Assembly: GCA_021734905.1 (NCBI GenBank)
Contig: JAIPIB010000001.1
Location: 2,230-66,229 of the forward strand
Reading direction: 5' to 3'
Source: Minisyncoccota bacterium
Lineage (GTDB): Bacteria; Patescibacteriota; Minisyncoccia; Phycocordibacterales; UBA918
DNA length: 64,000 bases
In this document: positions 9,785 to 61,663 of the stretch, piece after piece
Position numbering within the stretch: position 1 is the first letter of the stretch
Layout of the letters: every line of letters starts with the position of its first letter
The notes under the pieces: model-generated
What the model saw: only the letters and a program-made list of their open reading frames with translations
What the model was told of the DNA's origin: nothing
Databases searched by the model: none
Translations under genes and position numbers: made by a program

Positions 9785-10330
9785 ATGGCTAAACAACATA
9801 CAGACGGAGAACGACATTGGTATGCAATTCATACATATTCTGGTTATGAAAATGCAGTTGCACGTAACCTACGACAACGTATCGAATCACTTGGAATGGA
9901 AGATAGAATTTTTGAAGTAGTTGTACCAACCGAAAAGAAAATACGCGTGAAGGGAGGGAAGAGAATTACTGAAGAGGAAAGGATTTATCCTGGATACGTG
10001 CTCGTCGATATGGTTGTGACTGATGATTCATGGTATGTCGTACGTAACACTCCGCGCGTTACCGGATTCGTGGGTAGTGGAACACAGCCAGTCCCTCTTC
10101 GAAAAGAAGAACTTGATACCCTCATGAATCGCATGAAAGATGATGCTCCTAAACATCATATAGACCTTTCGATTGATGATGCCATTATGATTGTAGATGG
10201 ACCATTCAAAGAACTCGAAGGTAAGGTAGGTGAAATTGACTCCGAACGAGGAAAGGTGAAGGTACTCGTCTCGATGTTCGGTAGAGAGACTCCTGTTGAG
10301 CTTGATTTCTTGCAAATCAGAAAAATATAA
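9785..10330 (+). CDS. nusG: transcription termination/antitermination factor NusG
   Basis: NGN domain start (HWYAIHTYSGYENAV), C-terminal KOW region; secE-nusG-rplK synteny. Confidence 0.9.
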   Translation: MAKQHTDGERHWYAIHTYSGYENAVARNLRQRIESLGMEDRIFEVVVPTEKKIRVKGGKRITEEERIYPGYVLVDMVVTDDSWYVVRNTPRVTGFVGSGTQPVPLRKEELDTLMNRMKDDAPKHHIDLSIDDAIMIVDGPFKELEGKVGEIDSERGKVKVLVSMFGRETPVELDFLQIRKI

Positions 10331-10506
10331 AGTTCGGCCATTTTCTCTAAGAGAAAGAGAAGACAGTCTTGCAAACCTGCATTTTCTCTAGTACGATACG
10401 CGGGCTTCTAGAGACGTTCGGTTATGGAACGAATGGCTCAAAATAAAGATATAGTTTAATCTACCGAAGACAGTTTACTGTGTTTCACTCATAATAAAAT
10501 CTAGAC

Positions 10507-10929
10507 ATGGCAAAAAAATTAATTAAAAAAATCAAAGTTCAGGCAGTTGGTGGAAAGGCGACACCTGCTCCACCTCTCGGTCCCGTTCTTGGACAAGCAG
10601 GAATCAACATTGGTGAGTTTGTGAACCAATTTAATGAAAAGACTCGAGAACGAATGGGAGAAGTGGTTCCTGTTGAAATCAATGTATATGACGATCGAAG
10701 TTTTGATTTCATTACAAAGACATCACCGGCCTCTCGACTCATCCTTAAGAAAATTGGAAAGGAGAAGGCGTCAGGAAAAAATCTCACATCAAAAACTGGT
10801 GATATCACACGAGCACAGGTTCGTGAAATAGCAGAAGAAAAGATGCAAGACCTGAGCGCAAATGATATTGAGGCAGCAATGAAGATTATTGAAGGTACAT
10901 GCAGGTCAATGGGGGTCAATGTAATATAA
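10507..10929 (+). CDS. rplK: 50S ribosomal protein L11
   Basis: [46 protein letters not shown] is canonical L11; NOT followed by rplA. Confidence 0.9.
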
Positions 10930-18103: not shown

Positions 18104-19783
18104 ATGGAACCTTTAATAAGAAAAGCAATTGAAAACGCTCTTGAAGAACTCGGCATTACTGGTGTCCTTTTTGCTGTGGAACACCCCGCAGAAATTACTC
18201 ATGGTGATTACTCAACGAATGTTGCGATGGTGTGCGCTAAAAAGTTGGGGAAGAGCCCTCACGAAATTGCGGAGCAATTTCGTGAGGTACTTGAGGGAAA
18301 AATTTCTCATGTTGATTCAGTAAGTATTGCGGGCTCAGGGTTTATTAATTTTCACCTCACGCGTGATTTTTTCTCCGAAAAAATCACGGACGTGAATACA
18401 AATCCAGAAACATTTGGAAAAAATGATTCACTCAAAGGTGAAAATATTATTTTTGAATATACGAGTCCAAATCTCTTTAAACCACTTCACATTGGTAATC
18501 TTGTCGGGAACATCGTGGGTGAATCCATCTCACGACTTTTTGAATACGGTGGAGCAACACTTAATCGTGTTAATTATCCTTCTGATATTGGACTCACTGT
18601 TGCAAAAGGTGTTTGGGGACTCCAGAAGACAGGTGGAGATCCAAAGGATATTAATCAAATTGGCGATGCATACCGTGTAGGAAATGATGCATATGAACAT
18701 GATCCAGAGGCCAAGGAAGAAATTGAGTTTGTAAACCGATCTCTGTATCTTAACGACAATGAAGACCTTACAAATCTTCGTGCACAGGGAATAGAAACAT
18801 CACGTGCCCGACTTGCAGATTTATGTCGAATGCTCGGAACAACATTTGATACAGAAATTTTTGAAAGTGAGGTTAGTGCACTTGGTACGAAGATTGTTCG
18901 TGAAAATATTGGTAAGGTCTTTGAGGAAAGTAATGGGGCAGTCATATTTCGAGGTGAAAAATATGGTTTTCATACTCGTGTCTTTCTCAACTCGCAAGGA
19001 CTTCCAACATATGAAGCAAAGGATGTTGGAAACTTTGCAAAGAAGCAGGAAAAATACCCAGATTGGACACAAACTTTTGTAGTAACAGGTGGAGAACAAC
19101 GTGAATATTTTAAGGTGCTCATTGCCGCTCTCCGTGAGGTATTTCCTGATATAAGTCACAAAAAAATTGAGCACATTCCAACAGGTTTTCTTACGCTCAC
19201 TACAGGAAAAATGTCATCTCGAAAAGGAAACGTCCTTACAGGGGAGTCGTTGATTGCTGAGGTTAAGGATGAGGTAGAAGCTCGCGCGAAAGAAAGTAGG
19301 GCAGAGAACGTTACGGAACTTACCGAGCAAGTTTCCATCGGTGCGCTTAAATATCAGATTCTCCGTCAATCAGTCGGGTCCGATATTGTCTTTGATAAAG
19401 AACGAGCACTATCACTTGAGGGAGACTCTGGCCCGTACCTCATGTACACGCACGCGCGCATTTCCTCTATAGAAGAGAAGGCACATAAGATAGGGATGAA
19501 TTCTGATACAAAGGTTGCCCCAAGTGTTCCGTATGAAATTGAGAAGCTTATCTATCAGTTCCCTGAAGTCATCGTAAAAGCACAAACAGAACGAGCACCT
19601 CATTATGTGGTTACGTACCTTACTGCACTCGCAAGTTCATTTAATTCATTCTACGCACATGAAAAAATTATTGATAATGAAGATATGTACGCACCATACA
19701 AATTAGCGGTCGCGTCATCAGTAAAAAATATTCTCAGAAACGGACTCTGGGTACTTGGAATGAAAGCTCCCGAGAAAATGTGA
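18104..19783 (+). CDS. argS: arginine--tRNA ligase
   Basis: Class I HIGH-type motif SPNLFKPLHIGNLVGN and KMSSRKG (KMSK), length and N-terminal add-on domain fit ArgS. Confidence 0.8.
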   Translation: MEPLIRKAIENALEELGITGVLFAVEHPAEITHGDYSTNVAMVCAKKLGKSPHEIAEQFREVLEGKISHVDSVSIAGSGFINFHLTRDFFSEKITDVNTNPETFGKNDSLKGENIIFEYTSPNLFKPLHIGNLVGNIVGESISRLFEYGGATLNRVNYPSDIGLTVAKGVWGLQKTGGDPKDINQIGDAYRVGNDAYEHDPEAKEEIEFVNRSLYLNDNEDLTNLRAQGIETSRARLADLCRMLGTTFDTEIFESEVSALGTKIVRENIGKVFEESNGAVIFRGEKYGFHTRVFLNSQGLPTYEAKDVGNFAKKQEKYPDWTQTFVVTGGEQREYFKVLIAALREVFPDISHKKIEHIPTGFLTLTTGKMSSRKGNVLTGESLIAEVKDEVEARAKESRAENVTELTEQVSIGALKYQILRQSVGSDIVFDKERALSLEGDSGPYLMYTHARISSIEEKAHKIGMNSDTKVAPSVPYEIEKLIYQFPEVIVKAQTERAPHYVVTYLTALASSFNSFYAHEKIIDNEDMYAPYKLAVASSVKNILRNGLWVLGMKAPEKM

Positions 19784-19800
19784 AATGAGCAAAGGAATAA

Positions 19801-19858
19801 AGTGACTATTGCGAATTTCTGTCTCAGTTTTCTATTCCTGATGAAAACTGCTAGACGC
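19801..19858 (+). repeat. REP-like element, B-variant
   Basis: gtgactattgcgaatttctgtctcagttttctattcctgatgaaaactgctagacg; stem cagttttc/gaaaactg. Confidence 0.6.
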
Positions 19859-19904
19859 TGTTATATTTAAGATAATCTCGGTCGCTTGCAGCGACAATGC
19901 TGAA

Positions 19905-19950: not shown

Positions 19951-19972
19951 CAACTACCTCAGTCTCTGCACA

Positions 19973-20030
19973 TAAGCGACTATTGCGAATTTTTATCGTT
20001 CATCATTAATAGTGCGTATTACCGGAAATC
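19973..20030 (+). repeat. REP-like element, partial (5' box only)
   Basis: gcgactattgcgaatttttatcgttcatcattaatagtgcg. Confidence 0.45.
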
Positions 20031-29725: not shown

Positions 29726-29755
29726 AAAAATAGTACGATCGATCGTACTATTTTT
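29726..29755. promoter_or_regulatory. 30-bp perfect palindrome AAAAATAGTACGATC|GATCGTACTATTTTT (overlaps 3' end of TrpR-like gene; also hairpin+T-run after metG)
   Basis: Perfect dyad seen directly; second copy at 30169-30194. Confidence 0.6.
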
Positions 29756-30164
29756 CAGTAAGGAGTTTGGTTACTTTTTTCCATCTCCCTTTGCCACGGG
29801 GTGACATACCGCAATTAATAATAATTTCTAGTGTGTTGCAGATCCGTTCATATTCAATTGTATTTTTCAGTAGTGTCTTTTCGATATAAGCGTAACGCCC
29901 ATCTCTGTAATTGTCACGGATTCTATCTGCGGTTGATGGACTGATTTTGAGTGCATTCCATATCTTGTATGAAGAATCACCACGTACACACATGAGAATC
30001 GCAGTAAGTCTTTTTGAGAGCATGATGTACTCTTCTGTCCCCAAGAGCTCGTCTAAAAATAAAGCAGTTGATGATTTGTTAAGTTTTGCCAAAGAATCAC
30101 TCAATTGGTTTGCGAGTGATTCGAGTTGTTCTTCTTTGAGTGGGGTATGTGATACGTGAGCCAT
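29748..30164 (-). CDS. TrpR/YerC-YecD-like helix-turn-helix DNA-binding protein
   Basis: Pattern ..LLGTEEYIMLSKRLTAILMCVRGDSSYKIWNALKISPSTADRIRDN.. resembles TrpR-family HTH; bracketed by identical palindromes. Confidence 0.5.
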   Translation of the reverse strand: MAHVSHTPLKEEQLESLANQLSDSLAKLNKSSTALFLDELLGTEEYIMLSKRLTAILMCVRGDSSYKIWNALKISPSTADRIRDNYRDGRYAYIEKTLLKNTIEYERICNTLEIIINCGMSPRGKGRWKKVTKLLTEK

Positions 30165-30168
30165 TGTT

Positions 30169-30194
30169 AAATAGTACGATCGATCGTACTATTT
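30169..30194. promoter_or_regulatory. 26-bp perfect palindrome AAATAGTACGATCGATCGTACTATTT, 5 bp upstream of TrpR-like start and 60 bp upstream of divergent tatD (candidate operator)
   Basis: Perfect dyad identical in core to 29726-29755. Confidence 0.6.
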
Positions 30195-30254
30195 TACGAA
30201 CATGCAGAGTGGATATTTTGTGTTGTCTGCGAAAGTGCTATATTGATGTAATTC

Positions 30255-33362: not shown

Positions 33363-33495
33363 TATTGTATAGTTGAAGTAGTGGAACATTACAAAAGATA
33401 GATGAGATGAGTGTCGGAGCTTAGTTTGTCAAGAAAAAGTATTTCAGGATAACAGAGTTTTTCTCACTCGTTTCACTCGTAATAAAAACATAAGT

Positions 33496-33939
33496 ATGTA
33501 CCTTAACAAAGCAATGATTTTCGGAAATTTGACCCGTGATCCAGAACTCAAAGCACTTCCAAGCGGAATTCAAGTATGCTCATTTAGTCTAGCGACGAAT
33601 CGTGTCTATAAAGATCGTGATGGTAAGCGAGCAGAGCAAACTGATTATCATAATGTCGTTGTTTTTGGTCGACAGGCTGAAACAAGCGCACAGTATCTCA
33701 AGAAGGGGGCTAGCGCATATATAGAAGGACGTCTCCAAACACGGAGTTGGGATGCTGAAGGGACAAAACACTACAGAACCGAAATTATTGCTGATCGAGT
33801 ACAGTTTGGTCCACGTACTGGAGGTGCTCCAAGTAGCGAGACACAACAACAGGGAAATGCAAACAACGCAGCGCCTGCGGCGGGGAATGCACCTGAATAT
33901 CCAGAAGAAGACATTAATCCTGAAGACATCCCGTTCTAG
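33496..33939 (+). CDS. ssb: single-stranded DNA-binding protein
   Basis: OB-fold SSB N-terminus, Gly/Asn/Ala-rich linker, C-terminal DIPF. Confidence 0.9.
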   Translation: MYLNKAMIFGNLTRDPELKALPSGIQVCSFSLATNRVYKDRDGKRAEQTDYHNVVVFGRQAETSAQYLKKGASAYIEGRLQTRSWDAEGTKHYRTEIIADRVQFGPRTGGAPSSETQQQGNANNAAPAAGNAPEYPEEDINPEDIPF

Positions 33940-33994: not shown

Positions 33995-34195
33995 ATGGTG
34001 GAAAAGAAAACAAAAACAACGAATGTTGAGCATTATGATTACAAGGATGTTGTACGACTCCTTGCCCATATGAATCCACATTCACGTATGTTCAATCGAA
34101 GACGAACAGGGCACACAGCACATGAGCAACGAACGTTTGCGCAAGCAGTGAAGCGAGCACGTTTCATGGCACTTGTGCCGTACGTTTCAGAATGA
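33995..34195 (+). CDS. rpsR: 30S ribosomal protein S18
   Basis: ..RRRTGHTAHEQRTFAQAVKRARFMALVPYV canonical S18; not followed by rplI. Confidence 0.85.
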   Translation: MVEKKTKTTNVEHYDYKDVVRLLAHMNPHSRMFNRRRTGHTAHEQRTFAQAVKRARFMALVPYVSE

Positions 34196-34210
34196 CCAGA
34201 AAATAAAGAG

Positions 34211-34279
34211 CATAGCGACTATATTTTCTGAGTCTGTCATAAAATTCTATTCATTATGAATTTTAGGACGAACAGACTC
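34211..34279 (+). repeat. REP-like element (5' box agcgactatattttctgag + hairpin with TATTCATTATG loop)
   Basis: outer stem gagtctgt/acagactc, inner aaaattc/gaatttt; near-identical architecture to 47800-47866. Confidence 0.65.
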
Positions 34280-34317
34280 CAACGTGCACAAAGTTTAGCG
34301 TGGTGCGGAGATGGAAT

Positions 34318-34354
34318 ATAAAAAAACCGCGAGCCTCTGGCTCTGGGTTTTTTT
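34318..34354. terminator. bidirectional terminator-like hairpin flanked by A-run and T-run between rpsR and efp
   Basis: aaaaaaccgcgagcctctggctctgggttttttt. Confidence 0.5.
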
Positions 34355-34473
34355 ATATGTCCCATTAGAGTCAAGTTGCTAAGTAAAATTTTCACTACGT
34401 GCAAATTCCTATTAAACACTTCGCTCTGGTTTATAAGACGTTAAAACCGTCTTAGGGTGCTGTTTTTAACGTC

Positions 34474-35876: not shown

Positions 35877-36194
35877 ATGAAAACATTACAGCGAAAAATA
35901 ATGAGGGGAATCTACTATGCATACGCACTCAGGTTAGCGAGTCTTCCGGGAGTGTTCCATGGTTTTGTTATGCTTGGAATCATGATTGCTCTTACACATT
36001 TTGTTTCTATCGGAAACGTAATTGAAAATCTCTCGAATATTCAGTTGAGTCACGTTGGTACGTTTGTCTACAATGCAATCAGTACGACTGAATTATGGAC
36101 GCTTATCCTTATTGGGATGTTTGTGTTTCTCTCACTATCTCTTCGATTTAGTCTTGAGCCAAAGAGGGGAGGTTATACATTCATTCGAGCGTAA
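35877..36194 (+). CDS. small membrane protein downstream of ECF sigma (candidate anti-sigma factor)
   Basis: 3 predicted TM helices; position only. Confidence 0.3.
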   Translation: MKTLQRKIMRGIYYAYALRLASLPGVFHGFVMLGIMIALTHFVSIGNVIENLSNIQLSHVGTFVYNAISTTELWTLILIGMFVFLSLSLRFSLEPKRGGYTFIRA

Positions 36195-36204
36195 AAGAAG
36201 TAAT

Positions 36205-36241
36205 AAAACACCCGCGGCCCTTTGGGCCGCGGGTGTTTTAT
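36205..36241. terminator. bidirectional intrinsic terminator (acacccgcggcc-cttt-gggccgcgggtgt) between convergent genes and recA
   Basis: perfect 12-bp GC-rich stem with A/T runs both sides. Confidence 0.8.
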
Positions 36242-36252
36242 TTATTGAGAAC

Positions 36253-37347
36253 TTATACCACTTCCTTCAATGATTTTTTTACGAGCTTCAGTACTTCATT
36301 CATGAGTTTTGCATCCCCACGAAGTGTCGTCCTTGCTGCGTCGTATCCTCTTCCGAGTTTCACTTCTGTACTAGCGTCTCCACCAGGAGGGAGGTATGTG
36401 TACGAAGATCCCGATTTTTTTATAAAGCCAAATTTTTCTCCAAGAGCGAGAAGCTCTCCTTCTCGACTAATTCCTTCGTTATAGATAAGGTCGAATTCAG
36501 TTGTCTTGAAAGGCGCAGCAACTTTATTTTTAACTACCTTTACACGATGACGACCTCCGACTACCTCGTCGCCCTTTTTGATTTGAGCTATTCGTCGAAT
36601 GTCTAGACGAACGGATGTGTAAAATTTAAGTGCCTTTCCTCCGGGTGTTGTTTCTGGATTCCCAAACATCACACCAATTTGCATACGTATTTGGTTGATG
36701 AAAATAACAATAGTTTTTGATTTCGCAACGATTGAAGTAAGTTTTCGAAGAGCCTGACTCATGAGTCGAGCCTGTTTTCCAACATGATGTGCACCCATCT
36801 CACCTTCAATTTCATCACGAGGAGTAAGCGCAGCAACTGAGTCAATGACAATTATGTCAATTTTACCGGAACGAACAAGCGATTCAACAATTTCTAGAGC
36901 TTGTTCGCCGTTGTCGGGTTGTGAGATGAGGAGTTCATCAAGCTTCACACCGAGATTTTGTGTGTATATAGGATCCATTGCATGTTCAGCATCAATAAAT
37001 GCACAGATACCACCAAGTTTTTGTGCCTCAGCAATTGCATGAAGAGAGAGGGTGGTTTTTCCTGAAGATTCAGGTCCATATATCTCAATAATTCGACCTC
37101 GCGGGAAGCCGCCAATACCGAGAGCCTCATCAAGACCTATGGATCCAGTCGAGACAGCATCAACGTCTACTTTTCGTGTGCTACCAAGCGTCATGATTGC
37201 CTCGTCTCCAAATTTTGTCTTAATGCTCCTTAATGTCTCTGCAATACCAGCCATGCCTTCCTTTACAGCATCGTCAGGACTCATATTTTTCGAAACTTCT
37301 TCTTTGGGTAAAACTTTTGGCTTTAATTCTTTCTTTTTTGCTGGCAT
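36253..37347 (-). CDS. recA: recombinase RecA
   Basis: Walker [12 protein letters not shown]1/L2 loop regions, full-length RecA. Confidence 0.95.
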
Positions 37348-37360
37348 GCTTAGATTTTGT

Positions 37361-37562
37361 TACGAACGCAGTGAGTTAGAAAATCTTAGCTGTCGGAAAA
37401 TACTATTCATAATGTATTTTAACGACGAACGAAGTCAAACTACCACTTCACTTGTTCTTGATAATACACTGATAATTATACAGTACGAACGCAGTGAGTT
37501 AGAAAATCTTAGCTGTCGGAAAATACTATTCATAATGTATTTTAACGACGAACGAAGTCAAA
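37361..37562. repeat. two ~80-bp direct repeats (37361-37440, 37484-37562) in recA upstream region; each contains TATTCATAATG hairpin and a segment homologous to rplL leader
   Basis: units identical over ~79 nt; reverse complement reads ..cagctaagattttctaactcactgcgttcgtaacaaaatctaagcATG (recA start), cf. 48518-48575. Confidence 0.75.
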
Positions 37563-37612
37563 ACTCGTGCGTTTCTCTATTTATAATTCTAATTAAGTAT
37601 ACTACATTGATT

Positions 37613-37987
37613 TTATGACGGTAACGGCACATACACGTACCCTCTCATAAGGGAAGTGGTTCTACCAAATCGGTCCTGTGCATTAAGAGACATTATTGTG
37701 TAGCCATTTTCAAGAACTAACATTTGTGTAAAACCACCATCTTGATTTGTGTGGATTTCATTACCGTTGAGTGTTAGTTTTACAACGTTATGAGCGTCTC
37801 CAGAAAGCACTATACTGCGTTCATGTTGAATTGGGACGTATTCACCAGTAAGAGAAATGGTTGGGCCAAGGATGATGTTTCTGGCTTGAAACTGTATATA
37901 CAAAGCAAGAAGTACGAGTAAAAGGATACCCCCAATCACACGAATGCTAGTACCAAGTGTTGTTTCCGATATGCCAAAAGGAGCCAT
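37613..37987 (-). CDS. hypothetical small membrane-anchored protein
   Basis: N-terminal TM then beta-rich domain; downstream of ftsK. Confidence 0.35.
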   Translation of the reverse strand: MAPFGISETTLGTSIRVIGGILLLVLLALYIQFQARNIILGPTISLTGEYVPIQHERSIVLSGDAHNVVKLTLNGNEIHTNQDGGFTQMLVLENGYTIMSLNAQDRFGRTTSLMRGYVYVPLPS

Positions 37988-37993
37988 AATTAA

Positions 37994-40162
37994 TTAAACC
38001 TCGTCTTCAGACTCTGAATCTCGAGCACTGTCGATGACTAATCGAGGCCGTGAACCATCTGCAGGGCCAATAACACCACGTTCTTCAAGTACATCCATGA
38101 GTCGTGCGGCGCGTGAGTAGCCGAGGCGGAGTTTTCGCTGAAGGTATGATGTGGATGCTTTTCCAGCTTCAAGTACAGCAAGTCGTGCATCCTCGTAGAG
38201 TTCATCATCATCCTCATCATCACCGATACTTGAAGCAAATATAGAGTCCGAATCGGTCTTGTCGCCAGATGGATCAAGATTGATGGTGTCGAGCTCTTGG
38301 ATGGACTCCTGATCCTTTAGATAGCTCACGACACGCTTCACTTCATCAATGGTCACAAAGGCAGATTGTAAGCGCATTGGTTTTGGACTTTCAGCTGAAA
38401 GGAAGAGCATGTCACCTTGCCCAAGAAGTTTTTCTGCACCGCTTTGGTCAAGGATAGTACGAGAATCAATTTGTGACGCTACTTGGAGTGCAATACGAGT
38501 AGGGACATTGGCCTTAATGAGGCCTGTGATGACGTTCACAGACGGTCGCTGTGTAGAAAGAATGAGGTGAATTCCCACAGCACGACTCATTTGTGCGAGG
38601 CGCACAATACACGCTTCAAGTTCTTTTGGATATGTAGACATGAGGTCTGCAAGTTCATCAATGATGATGACAATGTACGGTAGTGGTTCTGGAAGAGCGT
38701 CACGTTCTTCGTCTGGAGATCCTTTTTCCTCGAAGGCACGTTTTGCTGGATGGTAGATTGTTTCGTGGTAGGTCGCGATATTTTGGACACGTTCTTTTCC
38801 AAGAATATCAAGTCGTCGTTCCATTTCTTTCATTGACCACTTGAGTGCGACGATTACTTTCTTAGCATCAATAATGACGGGAGTAAGGAGGTGCGGAATT
38901 CCATTGTAGAGGGTGAGTTCAATACGTTTTGGATCAACCATAATGAAACGAAGTTGGTCTGGTGAGTTACGGAAGAGAAGTGATATGACGACGTTGTGAA
39001 TCGCAACAGATTTTCCAGATCCGGTCGTACCAGCAATCAGTCCGTGTGGCATGCGTGCAATGTCTGCGAATTGTGCTTCGCCGGTAATATTTTTTCCAAG
39101 CGCAGTAAGGAGTGGTTTCGGTGAGTCAGTATATTCTGGGGAAGAGAAGAGTGACGCGAGTCCGAGTGTCTGCTTTTGTTTATTAGGCACCTCGATACCA
39201 ACAAGTGATTTTCCAGGAATTGGCGCTTCGATACGAATTGGACTTGAAGCAAGGGCGTATTCGAGATTCGTTTGAAGACCGACAATTTTTTCAAGCTTAA
39301 CGCCTTCTGCGGGCTTTATGGCGTATCTTGTGACCGACGAGCCAATAGTTACCGCGTCCATCTCAACATCAATGTTAAATTTCTTTAACGTCCGTTTAAT
39401 GGTGTTCGAGTTTGCTTTTACGTCACCAACATCAGGTTTCCCCTTGTCTTTATGTAAAAGAGAGAGTGGGGGTGCGGCATATGTCCCTCGGAAGCTTGAA
39501 ACAACAAACTCAGCCCCAGTTGCGCGACTAAGAATCTTCTCAGCAAGAGATTTCTTTTTGGGAGCAGCTTCATCAGCTGATTCAGCTTCCTCATTTTCCT
39601 GTTCGGATTCCTCGGAGTCTGTTGCGGGGAGGTTAACAATAGGTTCAGTGTCTTCGAGGTCCTCGGAATCTTTTCTTTGGAAGAGATGAAGGAAATTTGT
39701 GTTGAATGTAAGGAAGAGACCAACCATAAATAGTGCTACGAGGATGATTCCTGTAACAACACCTCCGAAGAGACTCGTGAGAGGTCGAAATACAATGGTT
39801 CCGAGAGCACCACCTTCTGAAAATGACAACTCAAGAAGAGCGAGAGCTGCGAGAAAGGCAAGAGAGATTCCTACTATTTTAGAACCACTGACACGGTTGT
39901 CTTCTCGAGGCTTTAAAAATACATAGACGAGAAGAGAACAGACAATTGGCGCAAGGACAAACCCATACCCAAAGAGGTAGTAAAGTGCATCATGTGTCAT
40001 CTCTCCTGCAATACCCGCATACCCGAGTGATGAAAAGATAAAGAAAATAGCAAGGACGACAAAGAAAATAGCAACAATTGCTTGTTTCGTGTGAGGGGAA
40101 AGATCGTCAAAAAATGAACCTTGTATTTGTGAAGCTGAATTTTGTTTGCGCCGCTTAGCCAT
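37994..40162 (-). CDS. ftsK: DNA translocase FtsK/SpoIIIE
   Basis: N-terminal TM domain, acidic linker, Walker A GTTGSGKS, C-terminal gamma wHTH (..SYLQRKLRLGYSRAARLMDVLEERG). Confidence 0.9.
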   Translation of the reverse strand: MAKRRKQNSASQIQGSFFDDLSPHTKQAIVAIFFVVLAIFFIFSSLGYAGIAGEMTHDALYYLFGYGFVLAPIVCSLLVYVFLKPREDNRVSGSKIVGISLAFLAALALLELSFSEGGALGTIVFRPLTSLFGGVVTGIILVALFMVGLFLTFNTNFLHLFQRKDSEDLEDTEPIVNLPATDSEESEQENEEAESADEAAPKKKSLAEKILSRATGAEFVVSSFRGTYAAPPLSLLHKDKGKPDVGDVKANSNTIKRTLKKFNIDVEMDAVTIGSSVTRYAIKPAEGVKLEKIVGLQTNLEYALASSPIRIEAPIPGKSLVGIEVPNKQKQTLGLASLFSSPEYTDSPKPLLTALGKNITGEAQFADIARMPHGLIAGTTGSGKSVAIHNVVISLLFRNSPDQLRFIMVDPKRIELTLYNGIPHLLTPVIIDAKKVIVALKWSMKEMERRLDILGKERVQNIATYHETIYHPAKRAFEEKGSPDEERDALPEPLPYIVIIIDELADLMSTYPKELEACIVRLAQMSRAVGIHLILSTQRPSVNVITGLIKANVPTRIALQVASQIDSRTILDQSGAEKLLGQGDMLFLSAESPKPMRLQSAFVTIDEVKRVVSYLKDQESIQELDTINLDPSGDKTDSDSIFASSIGDDEDDDELYEDARLAVLEAGKASTSYLQRKLRLGYSRAARLMDVLEERGVIGPADGSRPRLVIDSARDSESEDEV

Positions 40163-40441
40163 GCTGAAGTCTAATTCTTATGAATGCAATGAAGTATAAA
40201 ATTTGATCGTCTACGGATAACGATTGTATGCAATTTCTATGAGCAATAGAACTCTAATTCTACTTCATTAATTCTCCTAATAATTTCTTTAGAGTATTTA
40301 GTAATTATACAGTATAGCTGCGGCAAACTATAAAGGTAAACTGTCAAAAAAAGATCATCAAAGACCCCTTTTCATATAAGACAAAAAGGCGTATACTGGT
40401 CTTAAATGTGTCCGATATTATAAAGTCACCTATACGTCATT

Positions 40442-47612: not shown

Positions 47613-47799
47613 AAAAATTCTGGTATAGTGTTCGTCATACAGACTCATGACAGCTGGTCGTATATCGAAAAGGATATACTATAATGAACCGTTTGGTTTG
47701 CCAGCCGAAGTCCCTTCTCTTTTAAGGTTGGGGGTCGAAACTCAAGTCTGTACCACGCATTTGCTTGGTACGTCTGTGTCCAAAAAATAAGAAGCGGAA

Positions 47800-47866
47800 G
47801 CGACTATATTTTTTGAGACCGTCTTGAAATTCTATTTATAATGAATTTCAAGACGTACATACTTTA
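47800..47866 (+). repeat. REP-like element (5' box agcgactatattttttgag + perfect 12-bp hairpin gtcttgaaattc/gaatttcaagac, loop TATTTATAAT) upstream of rplJ
   Basis: seen in sequence. Confidence 0.65.
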
Positions 47867-47894
47867 TTTTTCAAAGAAGTATAAATTAAAAAGC

Positions 47895-48449: not shown

Positions 48450-48493
48450 GGTCGATTTTTCTTCTTTGGGGAAGAAAAATCGACAGACTCAGA
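48450..48493. repeat. REP-like hairpin (perfect 14-bp stem gtcgatttttcttc/gaagaaaaatcgac) between rplJ and rplL
   Basis: stem sequence related to B-variant stems (cgattt..ttct). Confidence 0.55.
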
Positions 48494-48572
48494 AATTATA
48501 GTCATTTCATTCCTTAATTTCTGGCCACAGCTAAGATTTTCTAATTCGGTGCCCTCATAACAAAATCTAAAC

Positions 48573-49001
48573 ATGACAGATGAAACAACAGTTGCTGCTG
48601 CAGAAGCGGTAGTCGAAGAAGTCGTAGAGGTTCCTGCAGAATTTAAAAAGATTGTAGAAGAGATTGAAAAAATGACTGTTCTTGAGCTTCACTCACTCGT
48701 GAAGGTTCTTGAAAAGAAGTTTGGTGTATCAGCACAAGCCGTTGCGGTTGCTGGACCAGCTGCAGGAGGAGGCGATGCTGCAGAAGAGCAGAGTACATTC
48801 ACTGTAGAACTTACTGAGGCTGGAGCACAGAAGATTGCTGTGATTAAGGCTGTTAAAGAAGTTCTTGGTCTTGGTCTCAAGGAGGCAAAAGACATGGTAG
48901 ATGCAGCACCTTCAGTTGTTAAGGAAGGTCTTAAGAAGGAAGATGCAGATGCTCTCAAGGCAAAGCTTGAAGAAGCTGGAGCAAAAGTTACCTTGAAATA
49001 A
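48573..49001 (+). CDS. rplL: 50S ribosomal protein L7/L12
   Basis: canonical L12 N-terminal dimerisation, Ala/Gly hinge, C-terminal domain ..EAGAKVTLK. Confidence 0.9.
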
Positions 49002-51735: not shown

Positions 51736-52465
51736 TACGTGTTTATGAGTATTACTAAAGAAACTAACTAGCGGAGAGAAGTCGCCTTGCGAATTCTTAT
51801 GCCGCGAAGCGCGGTTTTTTTAGTCAAAAAATTCAGGGATGAATTTTGAGAGGTATTCAGGGAAACATGCGATTTTTGACAAACACCACGAGTGAGCGTT
51901 GCGGAAGAGTTTACTCTTCCATAACCGAACGAGTGGTGGTTGTATGCTTGTCATACAATTGCATATTCTAGAGACGAGGTTGATAAGGCCTCGTCTCGAA
52001 AAATCCTATGTGTTCGACGCACATAGGTACTTGTCTGTGCTACTCGTTACTCAGAGTTTCATTTCTAATGAAATCTCTAGCGTAGTACAGACAAGCAGGT
52101 AAGCGTATGTAGCGTAAAGACAATTGGAATTTTTCCGGGTCTTTTCGTCCGCTACATACACAAACATAAACAAGTCTTATCAGAGTTTGTATCTCTGGTA
52201 AGCACACTCAAAAGTATCGTGAACTTCATAGAGGTGAAGTTCAAAAAATCGTGGATGATAGTAATTTGAAGTTCGCTTTTTAATTACTATCACAAAAGGG
52301 ACAATGCTTCGATTAAGGGGGGATATCAAATCTCTGCCACACTATACGAAGTTTAAGCGTAACCCCTGCGGCGGTAGCATTTTGCTATCATCCACGACCC
52401 AACTTTTTGTTGGGGTCTCTATGAAGTTCACGATACGATCAAAAAATTGTACAGCGGTGTACAGC
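51736..52465 (+). other. highly structured rRNA leader (multiple perfect hairpins; long-range stem cgtgaacttcatagag 52218-52233 / ctctatgaagttcacg 52419-52434; processing stem gtacagcattccttacagg with 56018-56036)
   Basis: inverted repeats seen in sequence; hairpin+T7 at ~51800-51822 inside leader. Confidence 0.5.
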
Positions 52466-53025
52466 ATTCCTTACAGGAATGTTAAGGGTGTATGGTGGAT
52501 GCCTAGGCTTCAAGAAGCGATGAAGGACGTGATATGGCTGCGATAAGCGTGGGGGAGATGCCAAATAATCGTTATATCCCACGATTTCCGAATGAGGAAA
52601 CTCACCTGCTTACGGCAGGTACCCTTGAATGAGGGAGCGTACCCAGGGAAGTGAAACATCACAGTACCTGGAGGAAAAGAAAGCAAAAAACGGGACTTTC
52701 TTTCTGACTTTTGAACAGCTTGCTGTTCTCCATTGAAGTCAGGAAGAAGGTTCTCGCGATTCCCTTAGTAGCGGCGAGCGAAAAGGGTAGAGCCCAAACC
52801 ATTCGTATTTATATGGATGGGGTTGTAGGGCAGTAGTGTCATTTAGTTGAGAAGAGTTACAAAATGTTGTCATAATAAAACGCGTTGGGAAGCGCGACCC
52901 AAGAAGGTAATAGTCCTGTATATGAAATTTCAACAACTCTTTTGCTACTGTTCCTGAGTAGTTCGGGACATGAATAGCCCGAATGAATCTGGGAGGACTA
53001 ACTCCTAAGGCTAAATATTCTTGAA

Positions 53026-53071
<46 letters not shown>

Positions 53072-53639
53072 GGAGAGGGGAGTGAAATAGATCTGAAACC
53101 ATACATCTACAAGGAGTCGAAGCCCTGCGGGGCGACGGCGTGCCTATTGAAGAATGAGCCGGCGAGTGTATCTTTATTCTTTGTCTAAGTGGTAAACCCA
53201 CGGAGGCGTAGTGAAAGCGAGCGTGAATAGCGCGAATATAGAGTAAGGATACGACCCGAAGCGGGATGAGCTTGCCATGTGCAGGGTGAAGCGAAGGTAA
53301 AACTTCGTGGAGGCCCGAACCGGTTGGCCGTTCAAAACCATCGGATGACATGTGGTAGGGAGTGAAAAGCTAATCGAATTCCGTAATAGCTGGTTCTCTC
53401 CGAAACAGCTTTAGGGTTGGCGTCGTGTGTTCCTCCTGGGGGTAGAGCTCTGGAAGGTCTAAATAGGGAGAAATCTCGTTAGACCTATCAAACTACGAAT
53501 ACCAGGTAGTCACAGCACGGCAGTTAGACTACGGGGGAGAAGCTCCGTTGGTCGAAAGGGAAACAGCCCAGATCGCCAGTTAAGGTCCCAAAATATATGC
53601 TCAGTGCAACTTGAGGAGGTGAGGATTCATAAACAGTCA

Positions 53640-53671
<32 letters not shown>

Positions 53672-54514
53672 GAAAGCGTAACAGCTCACTGATCGAGAGT
53701 CCTTGCGCCGAAGATGATCGGGGCTCAAGCATATTACCGAAACTGCGGATGTCACTTTTCTTCGGAAAAGTGGCGTGGTAGGAGAGCGTTCTGTTCTGCA
53801 ATGAAGCCAAGGTGTAAACCACGGTGGAGCGTACAGAAGTGAGAATGCCGGCACAAGTAACCGCAAGACGGGTGAGAACCCCGTCCGCCGAAATACCGAG
53901 GTTTCCTTCGCTATGCTGATCAGCGAAGGGTTAGTCGGTCCTAAGCCGATCCCGAATGGGGGAGGCGATGGATAGCAGGTTAATATTCCTGCACACTGTT
54001 GCGTTGCGATGGAGGGACGGAGGGTTGTACCCAAAGCATCTTATTGGATTGGTGCTGGAACTATGAGGAGGTGTGGTAGGCAAATCCGCCACACAATACT
54101 CCGAGTAGGGTCTGAACGTAAGGCTTCGGCCGAGCGAATGAGGGGAGCACGCTTCCTAGAAAAACTTCTAAGCATAAACGTAACGGTTCCGTACCGCAAA
54201 CCGACACAGGTGGTAGGGTCGAGAAGACCAAGGCGAACGAGTGAGGGGTCCTTAAGGAACTCGGCAAAAAAGCGGCCGTAACTTCGGGATAAGGCCTGCC
54301 TTTGCCCCTTCGGGGGTTAAAGGCCGCAGCGAAAGATTTCCTGGCAACTGTTTAACAAAAACACAGCTCCCTGCGAACACGTAAGTGGATGTATAGGGGG
54401 TGACGCCTGACCAATGCCGGAAGGTTAAATATGGGGGGTCTTATGTATTTATATGTAAGGCTGGACTATATAAGCCCCGGTCAATGTCAGCGATAACTAT
54501 AATCGTTCTAAGGT

Positions 54515-54712
54515 TCAGCAATTTTTCTTCGGAAAAATTGCTGATAGGACTGGAACGATTATGGGTTAAACATATAACGCCGAACAAGCTACCTTGCATC
54601 CAGAAATGTATGCATAGTCCAAATTGCAACCAACAAGAGACCAAATGTTGCACATCTTAACTATCGAAAGATAAAAGATGAAGATAGAGTCCTTCTGCAA
54701 TAGGAATAGAAG
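54515..54712 (+). other. 198-nt intervening sequence in 23S domain IV between AAGGU and AGCG (E. coli ~L1917-1923 region); degenerate group-I-like mini-intron?
   Basis: Exon sequence contiguous in E. coli; insert preceded by U, ends in G; contains gatgaagatagagtcc nearly identical to S-element segment of the downstream intron; starts with perfect UUCG-type hairpin cagcaattttt-cttcgg-aaaaattgctg. Confidence 0.55.
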
Positions 54713-55279
54713 AGCGCAATTCCTTGTCGGGTAAGTTCCGACGTGCACGAAAGGCGTAATGACTGGGAAACTGTCTCAAGGACCTGCTCGGTGAAAATAC
54801 AATGGGGGTGAAGATGCCCCCTACCTGCAGTTAGACGAAAAGACCCCAGGAGCTTTACTGTAGCTTCGTATTGGGGCTGTTGAATTAATGCGTAGCATAG
54901 AAGGGAGACTTTGAAGCGAGCTTTCGGGTTTCGTGGAGTCGCCAGTGAAATACCTTTCTTTAATTTGGCAGTTCCTAACCTCTTAGAAAAAATCTAAGAG
55001 AGACAGTGCGTGGCAGGCAGTTTTAGTGGGGCGCTACCCTCCTAAAAAGTAACGGAGGGGTCTCAAGGTTGGCTAGGCGCGAATGGAAACCGTGCCGATA
55101 GTGTAATGGCATAAGCCAGCTTGACTGTAAGGCGTCAGTGCCGAACAGATGCGAAAGCAGAGCATAGTGAACCGACGGTACGCTTTAGACGCGGCCGGAG
55201 ATTATCTGACAAAAGTTACCCTGGGGATAACAGGCTAGTCGTGCCCAAGCGTCCATAGCGACGGCACGGTTCGGCACCT

Positions 55280-55646
55280 TAACTTATTTATGGTATTTCA
55301 CTCAGCAATGGGTGTTTATATCAAGTTATAAATACATCGGGGTGCCTAGAGTAGCAATACTCTATAAAAATAAATTGGCTATATGCTGGAACTCCTGAGT
55401 CAAAATTAAGCATACAAGGCCCAAACAGTAATTTGAAAAAATAAGCTGTGTGGCTTGAAAACATTGTATGTTCAGGACAATCAGCAGGGAAGACTTCTAA
55501 GTTATTTAAAATAATATGAAGAACCCTCAGAGACTACACGCCAATCTCCAACTCTAAGTAGAGCTGGATGAAGATATAGTCCGATCCTCGTAGTAATACG
55601 AGTGTATAGTAAAAGTAGATAGAATTTTTACTATACAAAACGACAG
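55280..55646 (+). other. group I self-splicing intron (367 nt, no ORF) in 23S domain V at E. coli L2500-equivalent site
   Basis: Interrupts GGCACCU|CGAUGUCGGCUC; 5' exon ends in U, intron ends in G; candidate IGS gggtgt (55310-55315) pairs with exon gcaccu giving U-G at splice site; conserved Q aatcagcagg (55479-55488), R cctcagagactacacg (55525-55540), S aagatatagtcc (55571-55582). Confidence 0.85.
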
Positions 55647-55676
55647 CGATGTCGGCTCAACTTATCCTGGGGCTGG

Positions 55677-55712
<36 letters not shown>

Positions 55713-55717
55713 AAGTT

Positions 55718-55755
<38 letters not shown>

Positions 55756-56160
55756 CTCTATCTACTGCAGGCGTCGATTCTTGAAGAGATTTGTCCCTAG
55801 TACGAGAGGACCGGGATGAACTGACCTCTGGTCTATCTGCTGTCACGCCAGTGGCACCGCAGAGTAGCTATGTTGGGAATGGATAACTGCTGAAAGCATC
55901 TAAGCAGGAAGCCAACTCTAAGATTAGGAATCATTAAGTCCCCTGAGAGATGATCAGGTTGATAGGCACTAGGTGTAAGCGCAGCAATGTGTGGAGCCGA
56001 GGTGTACTAATTAGACGTAATTCCTGTAGGGAATGCTGTACATCGCCCCAAATGAACAAAATTAACGCACTGTTTTTAATTTTGGACATTTAGGAGTGAA
56101 AAGCTATACAATTTTTTGGAGTATTGTTTTATGTTTGTCGTCGTTTTAGAATATGTGATT

Positions 56161-56232
56161 GAACAAACGAGCGTAGCGACTATTGTGAAATTATGTCCCG
56201 ATTTCTTCTAACAGAGAAGTAATCGCTGGACC
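56161..56232 (+). repeat. REP-like element, B-variant, in 23S-tRNA spacer
   Basis: gagcgtagcgactattgtgaaattatgtcccgatttcttctaacagagaagtaatcgctggacc; ~66/66 identical to 56957-57030 copy. Confidence 0.7.
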
Positions 56233-56261: not shown

Positions 56262-56730
56262 ATTGACAATTGAATACTGTAATGTGGTTTTTAAACCATA
56301 AAGATCAGAGACGAATCAAAATTTCCGCTATCGGTCGCCAACCTCCCAAGTTTCAGGCATATCCGATACGTGTGTGTTTACATTTTGATTGACTTGCTCA
56401 GGTAGGCATTCCATGGCGGCTTTTGCCTCCTAACCTGCCGCCCGCGATTCTTCGCTACCTTGCGCAGTCATGCAAGTTGGGAGCTTTCTCCCCGTCTCTC
56501 CCTCGTTCTTTGTCTGTCGGTGGTGTATAGAAATTGTACGATTTTTCTGCCTTTCTTCATTCTTTTGGGATGTAGCTCAGCTAGAGGGTTATTGCAACTT
56601 CTTAGGTAGAGTGCCAATTGTTCCCGGTTGTCAACATCCGGTAAAAAGATTGGAGGTCGCTGGTTCGAATCCAGCCATCCCGACCATTGCTATTTCTTTG
56701 GAAATAGCATCACATTACAGTATTCAATAG
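56262..56730 (+). other. inverted repeat attgaatactgtaatgtg (56270-56287) / cacattacagtattcaat (56711-56728) bracketing the tRNA: candidate processing stem
   Basis: 18-bp perfect complementarity seen in sequence. Confidence 0.5.
56566..56686 (+). tRNA. aberrant over-long tRNA gene (121 nt) with canonical acceptor/T-arm/encoded CCA but ~22-nt insert in D-loop and ~23-nt insert in anticodon loop; isotype unresolved
   Basis: 5' tgggatg-ta-gctc-ag.. and 3' ..gaggtc-gctgg-ttcgaat-ccagc-catcccg-a-cca; anticodon stem ccaat/attgg encloses 30 nt instead of 7. Confidence 0.5.
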
Positions 56731-56956
56731 ATAAAATGCACCATTACAGCTTTTGTAGGGGAGATAGGAAGTAGTTTAAGGAGGAAAACATACAGGAAGT
56801 AACCCAAAGGGTAAACATAACTGCCAGATCCGTCTGTCAGAATCGCCTGCATATGACCAATTCGAGTTTGGTCCGCCTATCTTTCCCGCCTGAATCTAGA
56901 TATTCAGGTTTCCTACAAAAGCTATAATGAATTGAAAATTGAATATTTAAAGTTGA

Positions 56957-57030
56957 ATGAACAAAGGAGCGTAGCGACTATTGTGAAATTATGTCCCGAT
57001 TTCTTCTAACAGAGAAGTAATCGCTGGACG
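56957..57030 (+). repeat. REP-like element, B-variant, in tRNA-5S spacer
   Basis: near-identical to 56161-56232 copy. Confidence 0.7.
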
Positions 57031-57476: not shown

Positions 57477-57861
57477 GTGATGGGACCCATTTCGCAAGAC
57501 TCATTGAGATAGTTTGTGAGCGAAGCGAAACAAAATATCCAATGAGTGGACAGTTCCTGTAGGGAAAGTAGATCGCCTTCGCCCAGCACATTCCTCTGGG
57601 TAGAGGAATGTGGCGTAGAAATTCAACATAGTCGTTGCACTCCTTGTTTCATTCCACTTTAAGTGCTTTTTATGTATGAAGGAAGGTCCTCCTTACAGGA
57701 GCTGTTCAGGTCGTATGACAATTTCTTGCGAAAGTTTCCCAAACTTCCTCACGCCAACTTAGAGTTTTCAAAAGAAAAAGACCCCACAAAGGGGTCTTTT
57801 TCTTTGATGCAGCAAAATTTTGTTACATCTGTTTTCAGTTTCATCTGGTACAATATTCAAT

Positions 57862-60395: not shown

Positions 60396-61538
60396 TTATT
60401 CTTTATATAGGGTAATAGTTTTCTGGAGCATTTTTTCAAAAGTAAAATCTTGTGCACGGAGAAGTGCATTTTGTGCGAGAGTTTCTCGAAGGGTTGGATC
60501 AGTATTGATATCGGTATAGCTTGTCGCAAGTGCCGTAACGCTCCCCGAAGGAAAGAGAAGTCCTGAATTCTTGTGTGTAATAATTTCTGGAATACCACCG
60601 ACATTACTCGCAATGATCGGCAGTCCGGCGATACAGGCTTCAATAATGACGTATGCAAGCGCTTCAGAGCGAGACGAGAGAACAAAGAGATCAAACGCTT
60701 TGAGATATTGTGATGCTTCAGGAATATTTCCGGTAAAGAATACAACTCCTTCAAGGTCAAGTTCTTGTACAAGTGACTCCAGTCTCTTCCGTTCCTCACC
60801 TTCGCCAATAATGAGATGTCTAATATTTGGAAGCTGCTTCGATAGTGAAGCAAGCGCTCGAATGGTGACATCGTGTTGCTTAATGGGATGGAGTTCACCG
60901 ATAGTTACTGACCAAAAATCATTTTCATGATCGCGCAGCGTTGGGACATACCCAGAAAAGAATGATCGGGAAAATTCGCGGCTGTATAGATCTTTTATTG
61001 TTCTTCCGTTATGCACAACATGCATTTTGCTGTGCGCGAATGGGAAATTCATCTGCTGTTTCGTTGTCTTCGATACTACAATTGTGTGATGGGAAAGAAG
61101 GATGGTTATTCCGTGTAGTATTTTAATAATAAATTTTTGCCACGTCGGACGTTCTTCATTGAATGCCCATCCGTGCGCAGTGAATATAATTTTTTGGACA
61201 AAACACAGCCTTCCGATGAGCGCTCCTAAGCCTCCTGCTTTTGAGCTATTAATGTGGAGAATATCAGGCTTCTCAGATTTCATGGTGTTCCAAAGCTCGA
61301 GGGCTGTCTTTATTTCGCGAATTAGGGAGATATCTCGTTCAAGGGTATTGAGTGAAATGACACGCACTCCTTTTTTCACAAGTTCCTCCGTGAGTCGCCC
61401 GGTACCACCAAGTGCAACAATAATCTCAAATTCATTTGGATTGAGGTTTGTAGCAAGGTCATACACATAGCGCTGGGCGCCGCCCCAATTGCTCTTGGTA
61501 ATAAGGAAAAGAATCTTTTTTCGAGTATGTTGTGTCAT
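60396..61538 (-). CDS. glycosyltransferase family 4 (GT-B, group 1)
   Basis: N-terminal ..ILFLITKSNWGGAQRYVYDLA.. and C-terminal E-x7-E region typical of GT4. Confidence 0.75.
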   Translation of the reverse strand: MTQHTRKKILFLITKSNWGGAQRYVYDLATNLNPNEFEIIVALGGTGRLTEELVKKGVRVISLNTLERDISLIREIKTALELWNTMKSEKPDILHINSSKAGGLGALIGRLCFVQKIIFTAHGWAFNEERPTWQKFIIKILHGITILLSHHTIVVSKTTKQQMNFPFAHSKMHVVHNGRTIKDLYSREFSRSFFSGYVPTLRDHENDFWSVTIGELHPIKQHDVTIRALASLSKQLPNIRHLIIGEGEERKRLESLVQELDLEGVVFFTGNIPEASQYLKAFDLFVLSSRSEALAYVIIEACIAGLPIIASNVGGIPEIITHKNSGLLFPSGSVTALATSYTDINTDPTLRETLAQNALLRAQDFTFEKMLQKTITLYKE

Positions 61539-61663
61539 ATATCTCTATGTAGAATGTCTGTGGTATTGGGGCGTATTTCTGAAAAGGTACCCCATACCTT
61601 TTCAGCCCGACAATTGCTCTTGGTAATAAGGAAAAGAATCTTTTTTCGAGTATGTCGTGTCAT
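61486..61663 (-). repeat. tandem direct duplication (~53 bp, 1 mismatch) of the 5' end of the GT4 gene (61486-61538 and 61611-61663), separated by perfect hairpin gaaaaggta-cccca-taccttttc
   Basis: seen in sequence; second copy encodes MTRHTRKKILFLITKSN then diverges to a stop. Confidence 0.7.

Follow-up and report, generated by a model that had tools for sequence, protein, structure and literature searches.

A dispersed two-hairpin module that abuts start and stop codons, found upstream of recA and other genes of a Minisyncoccota bacterium

We describe here a window of 64,000 nt from a Minisyncoccota bacterium (GenBank assembly GCA_021734905.1, contig JAIPIB010000001.1, positions 2,230 to 66,229), and in particular the repeats upstream of its recA gene, which are copies of a dispersed, structured module of ~95 nt. 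The recA gene is at 36253–37347 on the minus strand (Pfam RecA, E=2.8e-135), and the 265 nt intergenic gap between it and the open reading frame (ORF) at 37613–37987 contains, in the minus-strand reading, two 79 nt units at 37562–37484 (distal) and 37439–37361 (proximal) that are 100% identical and spaced 123 nt apart; the direct repeats that a preliminary description of this DNA had reported 5′ of the gene are thus real. The features of the gap are given below, with scores from two covariance models built from the copies, R1 (hairpin B) and R2 (the full module, run with filters off).

37348–37390, minus strand: hairpin B of the proximal, complete recA module (R1 71.5 bits, E=1.2e-13; predicted fold; covariation)
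37392–37426, minus strand: hairpin A of the proximal recA module (minimum-energy fold; stem covaries across 12 modules)
37409–37438, minus strand: promoter-like site in the proximal unit (consensus scan, 9 of 12 positions matching; candidate only)
37440–37483, minus strand: 44 nt spacer between the recA units (TATAAT at 37480–37475; dissimilar to its flanks)
37484–37562, minus strand: distal, truncated recA module (R2 60.2 bits; R1 just 21.5 bits)

The proximal unit ends 13 nt short of recA and is followed by ACAAAATCTAAGC and then the ATG (37347–37345), and the whole proximal module (37345–37439) scores 106.4 bits with R2. Its hairpin B reads GCTAAGATTTTCT-AACTC-AC-TGC-GT-TCGTA-ACAAAATCTAAGC, with the last base abutting the recA ATG, and its hairpin A has GTCG-TT-AAAATAC and GTATTTT-C-CGAC on either side of the loop ATTATGAATA. 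The distal unit is followed by CTGTATAATTATC; it contains hairpin A, the 5′ three-quarters of hairpin B and its own TTGACT (37561–37556), and is missing the final 13 nt of the module, with the 3′ strand of hairpin B and the terminal ATG. Because of this loss it cannot form hairpin B and does not provide the decoy start that had been suggested, and the proposal of two copies at recA holds in the sense that one is complete and one cut off (1.8 copies in all). There is no full tandem duplication. Comparison of the spacer with the 44 nt upstream and downstream gave scores no higher than shuffling produces (90/500 and 339/500 shuffles, respectively, did as well), and since the spacer matches neither flank the recA repeats are not a plain 123 bp tandem duplication.

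Each of the recA units contains a promoter-like site (TTGACT, 16 or 18 nt, and TACATT or CATTAT), the second hexamer of which is in the hairpin A loop in the proximal copy. On this pattern the earlier suggestion of a duplicated promoter is plausible, both sites being candidate promoters. The TATAAT of the spacer is part of a 13-mer, TACTGTATAATTA (37485–37473), that is present again at 40302–40314, also on the minus strand; it precedes recA by 126 nt and ftsK by 140 nt, and the two upstream regions show ~55% aligned identity from this box through the ATG. Sharing of both the box and the aligned stretch suggests that the functional unit is probably promoter, spacer, hairpin A, hairpin B and ATG, with the 44 nt spacer probably being the promoter part of the proximal cassette, and two or three stacked promoters are possible at recA. 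We considered a LexA box in the spacer, and rejected it; the CTG-N9-CAG there is one base short of the gamma-proteobacterial box and the second arm is missing from the same 13-mer at ftsK. A scan of 36100–38100 for intrinsic terminators found solely that of recA (36202–36242). Short-read contigs with an identical recA terminate inside hairpin B.

The preliminary description had also likened the recA leader to that of rplL, and the comparison is borne out: 44 of 55 positions (80%) are identical up to the ATG, and a second repeat comparison gives 85% over 53 nt. This similarity is above chance. The 17-mer CAGCTAAGATTTTCTAA has three exact matches in the window (two at recA and one at rplL) and four with three or fewer mismatches, against 0.39 expected, and none of 100 shuffles reaches four; TAACAAAATCTAARCATG behaves in the same way. 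The cassette does stop exactly at the start codon, and the shared peptides of 13 residues each are, as described, artefacts, being opposite-strand translations of the recA and rplL leaders. The pairing of recA with rplL was nonetheless far too narrow, as the module is not limited to two genes: it is found before many genes, with at least six leader and at least five inverted copies in the window and more in other Patescibacteria. Leader copies were located by viewing the 160 nt upstream of every ORF and with an nhmmer profile, and they end at the ATGs of nrdB (5988), nusG (9785), rplK (10507), ssb (33496), recA and rplL, with a weak copy at ftsK (gene names by Pfam). Sense-strand matches of the covariance models are those at recA, nusG, rplL, ssb and rplK, and the distal recA copy. 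Leaders beyond recA are as follows, where L-numbers denote contigs or loci of the other genomes compared.

5946–5990, plus strand: nrdB leader, the 3′ half being of the hairpin B type and the 5′ strand lost (nhmmer E=5.9e-07; full orthologous module in L130)
9689–9787, plus strand: complete leader module to the nusG ATG (R2 91.4 bits; R1 55.5 bits; Pfam NusG)
10463–10509, plus strand: rplK leader of the hairpin B type (R1 47.1 bits)
33415–33498, plus strand: ssb leader module, hairpin A degenerate and hairpin B intact (R2 34.6 bits; R1 53.1 bits; canonical orthologous copy in L137)
40160–40263, minus strand: degenerate ftsK module (R1 21.0 bits, E=0.026; aligns to the recA upstream region; canonical ftsK copies in L003 and L110)
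48451–48526, plus strand: upstream of the rplL hairpin B, a hairpin-A-like stem-loop (48451–48484) and a degenerate second B-like hairpin (48486–48526) (repeat comparison; R2 51.1 bits for 48473–48575)
48529–48575, plus strand: hairpin B and ATG of rplL (R1 68.8 bits; Pfam L7/L12)

Weak module-like pieces are also present at 19971–19994 and at 57617–57657 (minus strand), the latter after the 5S gene and upstream of a possible small ORF or small RNA that ends at a terminator near 57780.

The module is bipartite, with hairpin A, two bases, hairpin B and then, in the leader form, the ATG (the alignment consensus is ..GTTCGTCGnnAAAATGCATTAGGAATAGCATTTTnCGACGGCTAAGATTTTCTAACTCGCTnCGCTCATAACAAAATCTAAGC followed by ATG). 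Hairpin A has ~12 bp; its foot, GTCG/CGAC, is conserved, its stem varies and its loop is rich in purines. Hairpin B is long and irregular, with ~17 base-pair layers: a basal AU-rich stem of 12 bp, then A-U and Y-R pairs, and at the apex a conserved UC/UC 2x2 internal loop, a 2 bp RY/RY helix and a loop of 3 or 4 nt. RNAalifold gave no structure with the first raw alignment, in which rows were misaligned, and explicit structures and pair counts were used instead. In 12 full modules the 27 pairs are 90% paired, and 11 of them have changed on both sides; no shuffle of 500 equals this, and slid controls are 35–44% paired. Examples are pair 18–50 of hairpin A (GC seven times, CG twice, AU and UA once each), pair 71–84 of hairpin B (UA six times, CG five times), and the inner 2 bp helix of hairpin B, which in 23 copies is GC14/AU8/GU1 and CG15/UA6. 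Minimum-energy folding finds both hairpins in most copies, and hairpin B alone is weak (−2 to −6 kcal/mol). The invariant positions cluster in the A-rich 3′ strand of hairpin B, beside the AUG.

All of the copies in the window are intergenic. We counted the ORF register for 36 scored copies, and 19 of these are leaders with an ORF start at the ATG position of the model (18 at offset 0, and that in L130 at +4). Six copies, all of them inverted, overlap the TGA that ends the preceding gene, at offset −2 or −4; four of these are in the window (nrdB, secE, rpsR and ORF 18104), one is at nrdB in L130 and one at a 561-residue ORF in L084, and twelve of the 36 abut neither a start nor a stop codon. 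The polarity is fixed, in that wherever a copy abuts an ORF it is hairpin B that faces the ORF, with hairpin A distal. The gene that follows a leader is mostly the second or an internal one of a conserved operon (groES-groL, nrdA-nrdB, rplJ-rplL, secE-nusG-rplK, ssb-rpsR). No Shine-Dalgarno sequence (GGAGG-like, 5–10 nt upstream) is present between hairpin B and the ATG in any copy, and even a weak Shine-Dalgarno-like motif is seen in only ~8 of the 54 ORFs of the window. Together with the TATAAT-like hexamers that are present 7–17 nt before the ATG of many window genes, this scarcity suggests that leaderless mRNAs, or mRNAs with very short leaders, may be widespread.

One explanation is a vertically inherited cis-regulatory leader, at which a trans-acting factor (the ribosome, S1, an RNase III-type enzyme or a global RNA-binding protein) would drive Shine-Dalgarno-independent initiation of internal cistrons in the manner of an internal ribosome entry site, with the inverted copies being a separate 3′ processing or stability signal and the recA duplication a local accident. 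The exactness of the ATG register, the placing of most copies before second or internal cistrons of conserved operons, the covariation in both hairpins and the invariant A-rich strand beside the AUG all speak for it, as does the orthologous retention of leaders at nrdB, ssb, groL, rpmG and ftsK. The occurrence of the same module in both orientations speaks against it, as does its distribution among genomes (see below).

Repeats D1–D3 of the window are the module reversed, with the order B′-A′ in the direction of the neighbouring genes, and R2 identifies five full-length inverted copies on the opposite strand. These and the related D1-type copies are:

7018–7109, minus strand: inverted module at the nrdB TGA (7020–7022), with more D1-type copies at 7135–7210 (R2 30.8 bits; orthologous copy after nrdB in L130)
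9166–9236: related D1-type copy after the TGA of the ORF at 8371–9165, a seventh stop-codon case
9565–9657, minus strand: inverted module at the secE TGA (9566–9568) (R2 22.1 bits)
19777–19869, minus strand: inverted module at the TGA of the ORF at 18104–19783 (R2 23.1 bits)
34191–34282, minus strand: inverted module at the rpsR TGA (34193–34195) (R2 46.0 bits; absent after rpsR in L137)
47775–47867, minus strand: inverted module upstream of rplJ (R2 46.5 bits; orthologous copy in L167; absent from L165, L166, L168 and L169)
56156–56231, plus strand: D1-type inverted element in the 23S–tRNA spacer, with a 97% identical twin at 56954–57029 in the tRNA–5S spacer

The apex of the inverted copies is the reverse complement of the leader apex (GAGCRTAGCGACTA versus TAGTCGCTAYGCTC), giving tandem GA/GA in place of UC/UC. 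None of the inverted modules has a T-run, and the true terminators are further downstream (e.g. at ~34320–34360). Two further ideas about these copies were set aside: pairing of a leader with the inverted trailer of the same gene, because visual inspection showed no gene-by-gene complementarity of the apical sequences, and a selenocysteine or readthrough signal formed by TGA and hairpin, because the downstream frames are short and not conserved. We note that the start of the longest rplJ ORF (47841) falls in the hairpin A loop of the inverted module there; the true start is probably 47895, where the conserved N-terminus MAITKAKKEDIL begins.

The inverted copies also bear on whether the module is a promoter cassette acting as DNA, with functional −35-like TTGACT/TTGGAG boxes and −10-like CATTAT/CATAAT boxes in the hairpin A loop, and with the stacked promoters at recA that are expected for a highly expressed inducible gene. 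The promoter-like boxes in both recA units are in keeping with this, as are the TATAAT of the recA spacer and the TTGGAG-N17-CATAAT/CATTAT-like boxes in several other copies. However, the commonest loop, CATTAGGAATAG, lacks the final T that a good −10 hexamer would need, and promoters in inverted copies would direct antisense transcription into the genes before them. Neither the stem covariation nor the fixed register of hairpin B with ATG or TGA is explained, and we consider a cassette of this type improbable.

A pattern scan using one genome per species gave mostly chance matches, and 12 near-identical leaders ending at an ATG in Patescibacteria metagenome-assembled genomes (MAGs): before groL (three), rpmG (two), ftsK, rplO, nrdB, rplB, rpsR, ssb and an htpX-like gene. 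The recA copy is 88–90% identical to those before htpX, rplB, rplO and groL in other genomes, and just 49–65% identical to the nusG, ssb, rplK and nrdB copies of its own genome. L003, the closest relative by recA (85% identical), has a leader at ftsK and a plain promoter at recA, and among 80 recA loci the leader is present at recA in L016 and L017 only. Six relatives with RplL proteins 80–88% identical have rplJ-rplL spacers of 12–141 nt with no module, and the 189 nt spacer of the window therefore represents an acquisition; copies have thus been gained and lost between relatives. Other examples are the inverted copy upstream of rplJ, which is common to L167 only, and the rpsR trailer, which is absent in L137, where the stop codon is a TAA at the same position. 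Decay is seen in the nrdB leader, whose hairpin A is present in L130 (NrdB 95% identical) and lost in the window. The preliminary description had called the cassette transposable or convertible, and judged from these copies the pattern is that of a repeat that spreads or converts while its older copies decay.

The same module-like hairpin extends beyond the Patescibacteria. Hairpin B is present, its internal-loop nucleotides unchanged and its stem compensated (AGCTTTTCT/AGAAAAGCT), in three Rhizobiales/Hyphomicrobiales MAGs and one Clostridia MAG (GC 62–66% in Rhizobium/Hyphomicrobiales), at the following positions:

L087, 6704–6750: hairpin B
L103, 4680–4726 and 4783–4829: tandem hairpin B pair beside the tmRNA gene (4275–4600)
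L144, 4626–4672: hairpin B
L091, 7597–7643: hairpin B

No match to hairpin B was found in a scan of viral contigs or by BLAST against plasmids. For the vertically inherited cis-regulatory leader these comparisons are unfavourable: presence and absence differ between close relatives at rplL, rpsR and recA, non-orthologous copies in different genomes are ~90% identical while those within one genome are 50–65% identical, as with a spreading element, and in the Rhizobiales hairpin B is also found away from genes. We therefore regard that explanation as unlikely, while giving it more weight than the promoter cassette.

Mobilisation might come from a transposase encoded elsewhere. Y1 (HUH) transposase-like proteins of 190–225 residues are encoded in related Patescibacteria (L166 2686–3490 and L170 3396–4192, and also L036, L034, L013, L024, L043, L057, L064 and L008), and each relative's Y1 gene has its own short perfect palindrome on either side (e.g. 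ATCAAGGTGWCACCTTGAT), the classical arrangement of repetitive extragenic palindromic (REP) sequences with REP-associated tyrosine transposases (RAYTs), which is apparently common in the group. The module could accordingly be a REP/REPIN-type element moved by a RAYT-like Y1 enzyme and with no role in gene expression. It is like REP sequences and the bacterial interspersed mosaic elements (BIMEs) built from them in being a multicopy, imperfect, extragenic palindrome present in both orientations (in the numbers given above for 64 kb) and often directly after stop codons, and Y1_Tnp genes with flanking palindromes are frequent among related Patescibacteria (L166, L170 and 11 of the recA loci). However, a tblastn search with the L166 Y1 protein found no Y1 transposase in the 64 kb window, and no cognate Y1 gene flanked by the same repeat is present there or at the Y1 loci of relatives. 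Those loci contain no module, their palindromes are short, GC-rich and species-specific, unlike hairpin A or hairpin B, and the Y1-flanking palindrome of relatives is absent from the window. RAYT/REP membership is thus not supported, although the behaviour of the element is similar, and we give this origin as little credence as the promoter cassette.

The interpretation that we favour, with somewhat better than even confidence, is that the recA repeats are 1.8 copies of a dispersed two-hairpin module that is probably mobile or gene-converting and is transcribed into mRNA ends. Copies would move by transposition or gene conversion, from site to site and from genome to genome. At recA, the proximal copy with its 44 nt TATAAT spacer would form a promoter-leader cassette, a diverged form of which is at ftsK, and the distal copy would be a truncated extra one that adds a second promoter-like site and no start codon. 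The module would be co-transcribed as part of the mRNA, where the weak, AU-rich hairpin B could leave the AUG as the first unpaired codon in a host that mostly does without Shine-Dalgarno sites. Hairpins at both ends of the mRNA would fold away untranslated RNA, and insertions between cistrons could therefore be tolerated and mRNA ends protected. We found no such family in Rfam or in the literature that we could search, by topic and by literal sequence.

Several observations weigh against this interpretation. The rplL genes of relatives have short, AT-rich spacers without the module and are translated from them, and initiation therefore does not require it. In the Rhizobiales and Clostridia no copy of hairpin B is beside a start codon, which argues against a purely start-codon-related role. 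In the sense RNA of the leaders the UC/UC mismatch is destabilising, folding is usually better on the opposite strand, and counts of G.U versus A.C pairs show no usable asymmetry, so that no functional strand was identified from them. No transposase, and none of the terminal inverted repeats or target-site duplications of a miniature inverted-repeat transposable element, was found at the module ends, the filled and empty sites at rpsR and rplJ-rplL being too diverged for alignment across the junctions. Lastly, the transcription start sites, the RNA folds and the effects on translation or stability are all things that we infer.

A bolder proposal is that hairpins A and B form a punctuation system for mRNA, in which a universal factor would read hairpin B as a mark of the first codon in the leader form and of the UGA stop in the inverted form, and as an internal ribosome entry or processing signal, with operon-internal genes translated like leaderless mRNAs. 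Recognition by such a factor would explain the conservation of hairpin B in Patescibacteria, Rhizobiales and Clostridia. We rate this as speculative, somewhat below the vertically inherited leader and a little above the promoter cassette.

Several known RNA and DNA signals were also compared with the module. At the gathering threshold, Rfam 15 identifies in the window rRNA, tRNA and a group I intron only; there is no L10 leader or other leader family at rplL, so the notion of an rplL leader as a family was not upheld. Permissive Rfam scans of the copies at recA, at rplJ-rplL and in L106 and L103 gave sub-threshold chance matches only. An RNA thermometer of the fourU or ROSE type was rejected because UUUU pairs with AAAA and not with a Shine-Dalgarno sequence, and the AUG is outside the stem; thermometer-like action is a possibility, given the low calculated stability of hairpin B. 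For boxA/nut antitermination, CGCUCAUAACAA resembles the GCUCUUUAACAA-like box in some copies, but the GC positions there are free to vary and covary as helix pairs (GC/AU), and we rejected the likeness; further, the rRNA-spacer copies are inverted and there is no such box in the 23S leader. An upstream ORF beginning in the hairpin A loop (MNSIFRQLRFSNSLRS) is available only where the loop reads ATTATG, which is not conserved, and the 3′ strand of hairpin B is not a good −10 box for a leaderless transcript, since a third of the copies lack the crucial final T.

The window has other features outside this family. The 23S rRNA gene (52472–56030) is 3559 nt long, compared with 2925 nt for the model, with a group I intron at 55328–55603, and is bracketed by a 27 nt, 93% complementary processing-stem repeat (52454–52480 and 56020–56046); no 16S gene is nearby. 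Such an intron in 23S rRNA is in keeping with the Candidate Phyla Radiation. The RplL encoded in the window is 100% identical to a protein from a MAG labelled 'Candidatus Pacebacteria bacterium'. Between 23S and 5S, Rfam identifies a tRNA at 56566–56683 with a length of 118 nt (the model is 71 nt), and ARAGORN finds no tRNA in the window; this may be a tRNA gene with an insertion or intron. A perfect 27 nt palindrome, AAATAGTACGATCGATCGTACTATTT, is present twice (29727–29754 and 30169–30195), bracketing a 138-residue ORF (29748–30164, minus strand) and lying upstream of the divergent gene at 30255, and looks like an operator. Finally, a 53 nt direct repeat (98% identical) at 61486–61538 and 61611–61663 duplicates the 5′ end of the ORF at 60396–61538 (minus strand) 125 nt upstream.

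To our knowledge, almost nothing is known of translation starts or transcript organisation in the Patescibacteria (the Candidate Phyla Radiation), a large and poorly understood group. The module gives a concrete handle on both, being compact, structured, multicopy and registered with ORFs, replacing the usual ribosome-binding context and moving between genes. When genetic systems are first built for the group, it could serve as a portable expression cassette, and it explains assembly breaks in front of housekeeping genes in these genomes. Since unrelated phyla have the same hairpin, one may ask whether they share a recognition factor or whether the hairpin has spread horizontally.

Among known systems, the module can be compared with single hairpins at mRNA starts and between cistrons, i.e. 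the split ribosome-binding sites of T4 genes 38 and 25, the 5′ stem-loops of the ompA/ermC type and the RNase III intercistronic hairpins of T7. These likewise fold directly upstream of a start or between cistrons, where they could join signals, protect mRNA ends or be processed. They are specific to single genes or phages and have Shine-Dalgarno sequences, whereas the module is multicopy, has none, and has an inverted form at stop codons. The pneumococcal BOX, enterobacterial ERIC/IRU (enterobacterial repetitive intergenic consensus/intergenic repeat unit) and Neisseria Correia elements are also comparable, as modular, hairpin-forming intergenic repeats with promoter-like boxes and a copy content that varies between close relatives. 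They are transcribed and can alter expression or stability of neighbouring mRNAs, as the module may also do. The module has no sequence similarity to them and no visible terminal inverted repeats or target duplications, and a single-nucleotide register with ATG or TGA is not a described property of those families. It is likewise similar to the REP/BIME sequences of enterobacteria and pseudomonads, which are short, structured, multicopy intergenic palindromes in both orientations, often forming mosaics and often just after operon-internal stop codons, and which are co-transcribed, as the module presumably is. It departs from these in being a ~95 nt two-hairpin unit with large loops, conserved internal loops and a hairpin B end that faces the ORF, in abutting starts as well as stops, in having no associated RAYT that we could find, and in having a hairpin B that is conserved across phyla where REPs are species-specific. 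Overall, the element is a structured, modular repeat of a REP/BIME-like kind, unusual in being placed to the single nucleotide with respect to ORF boundaries.

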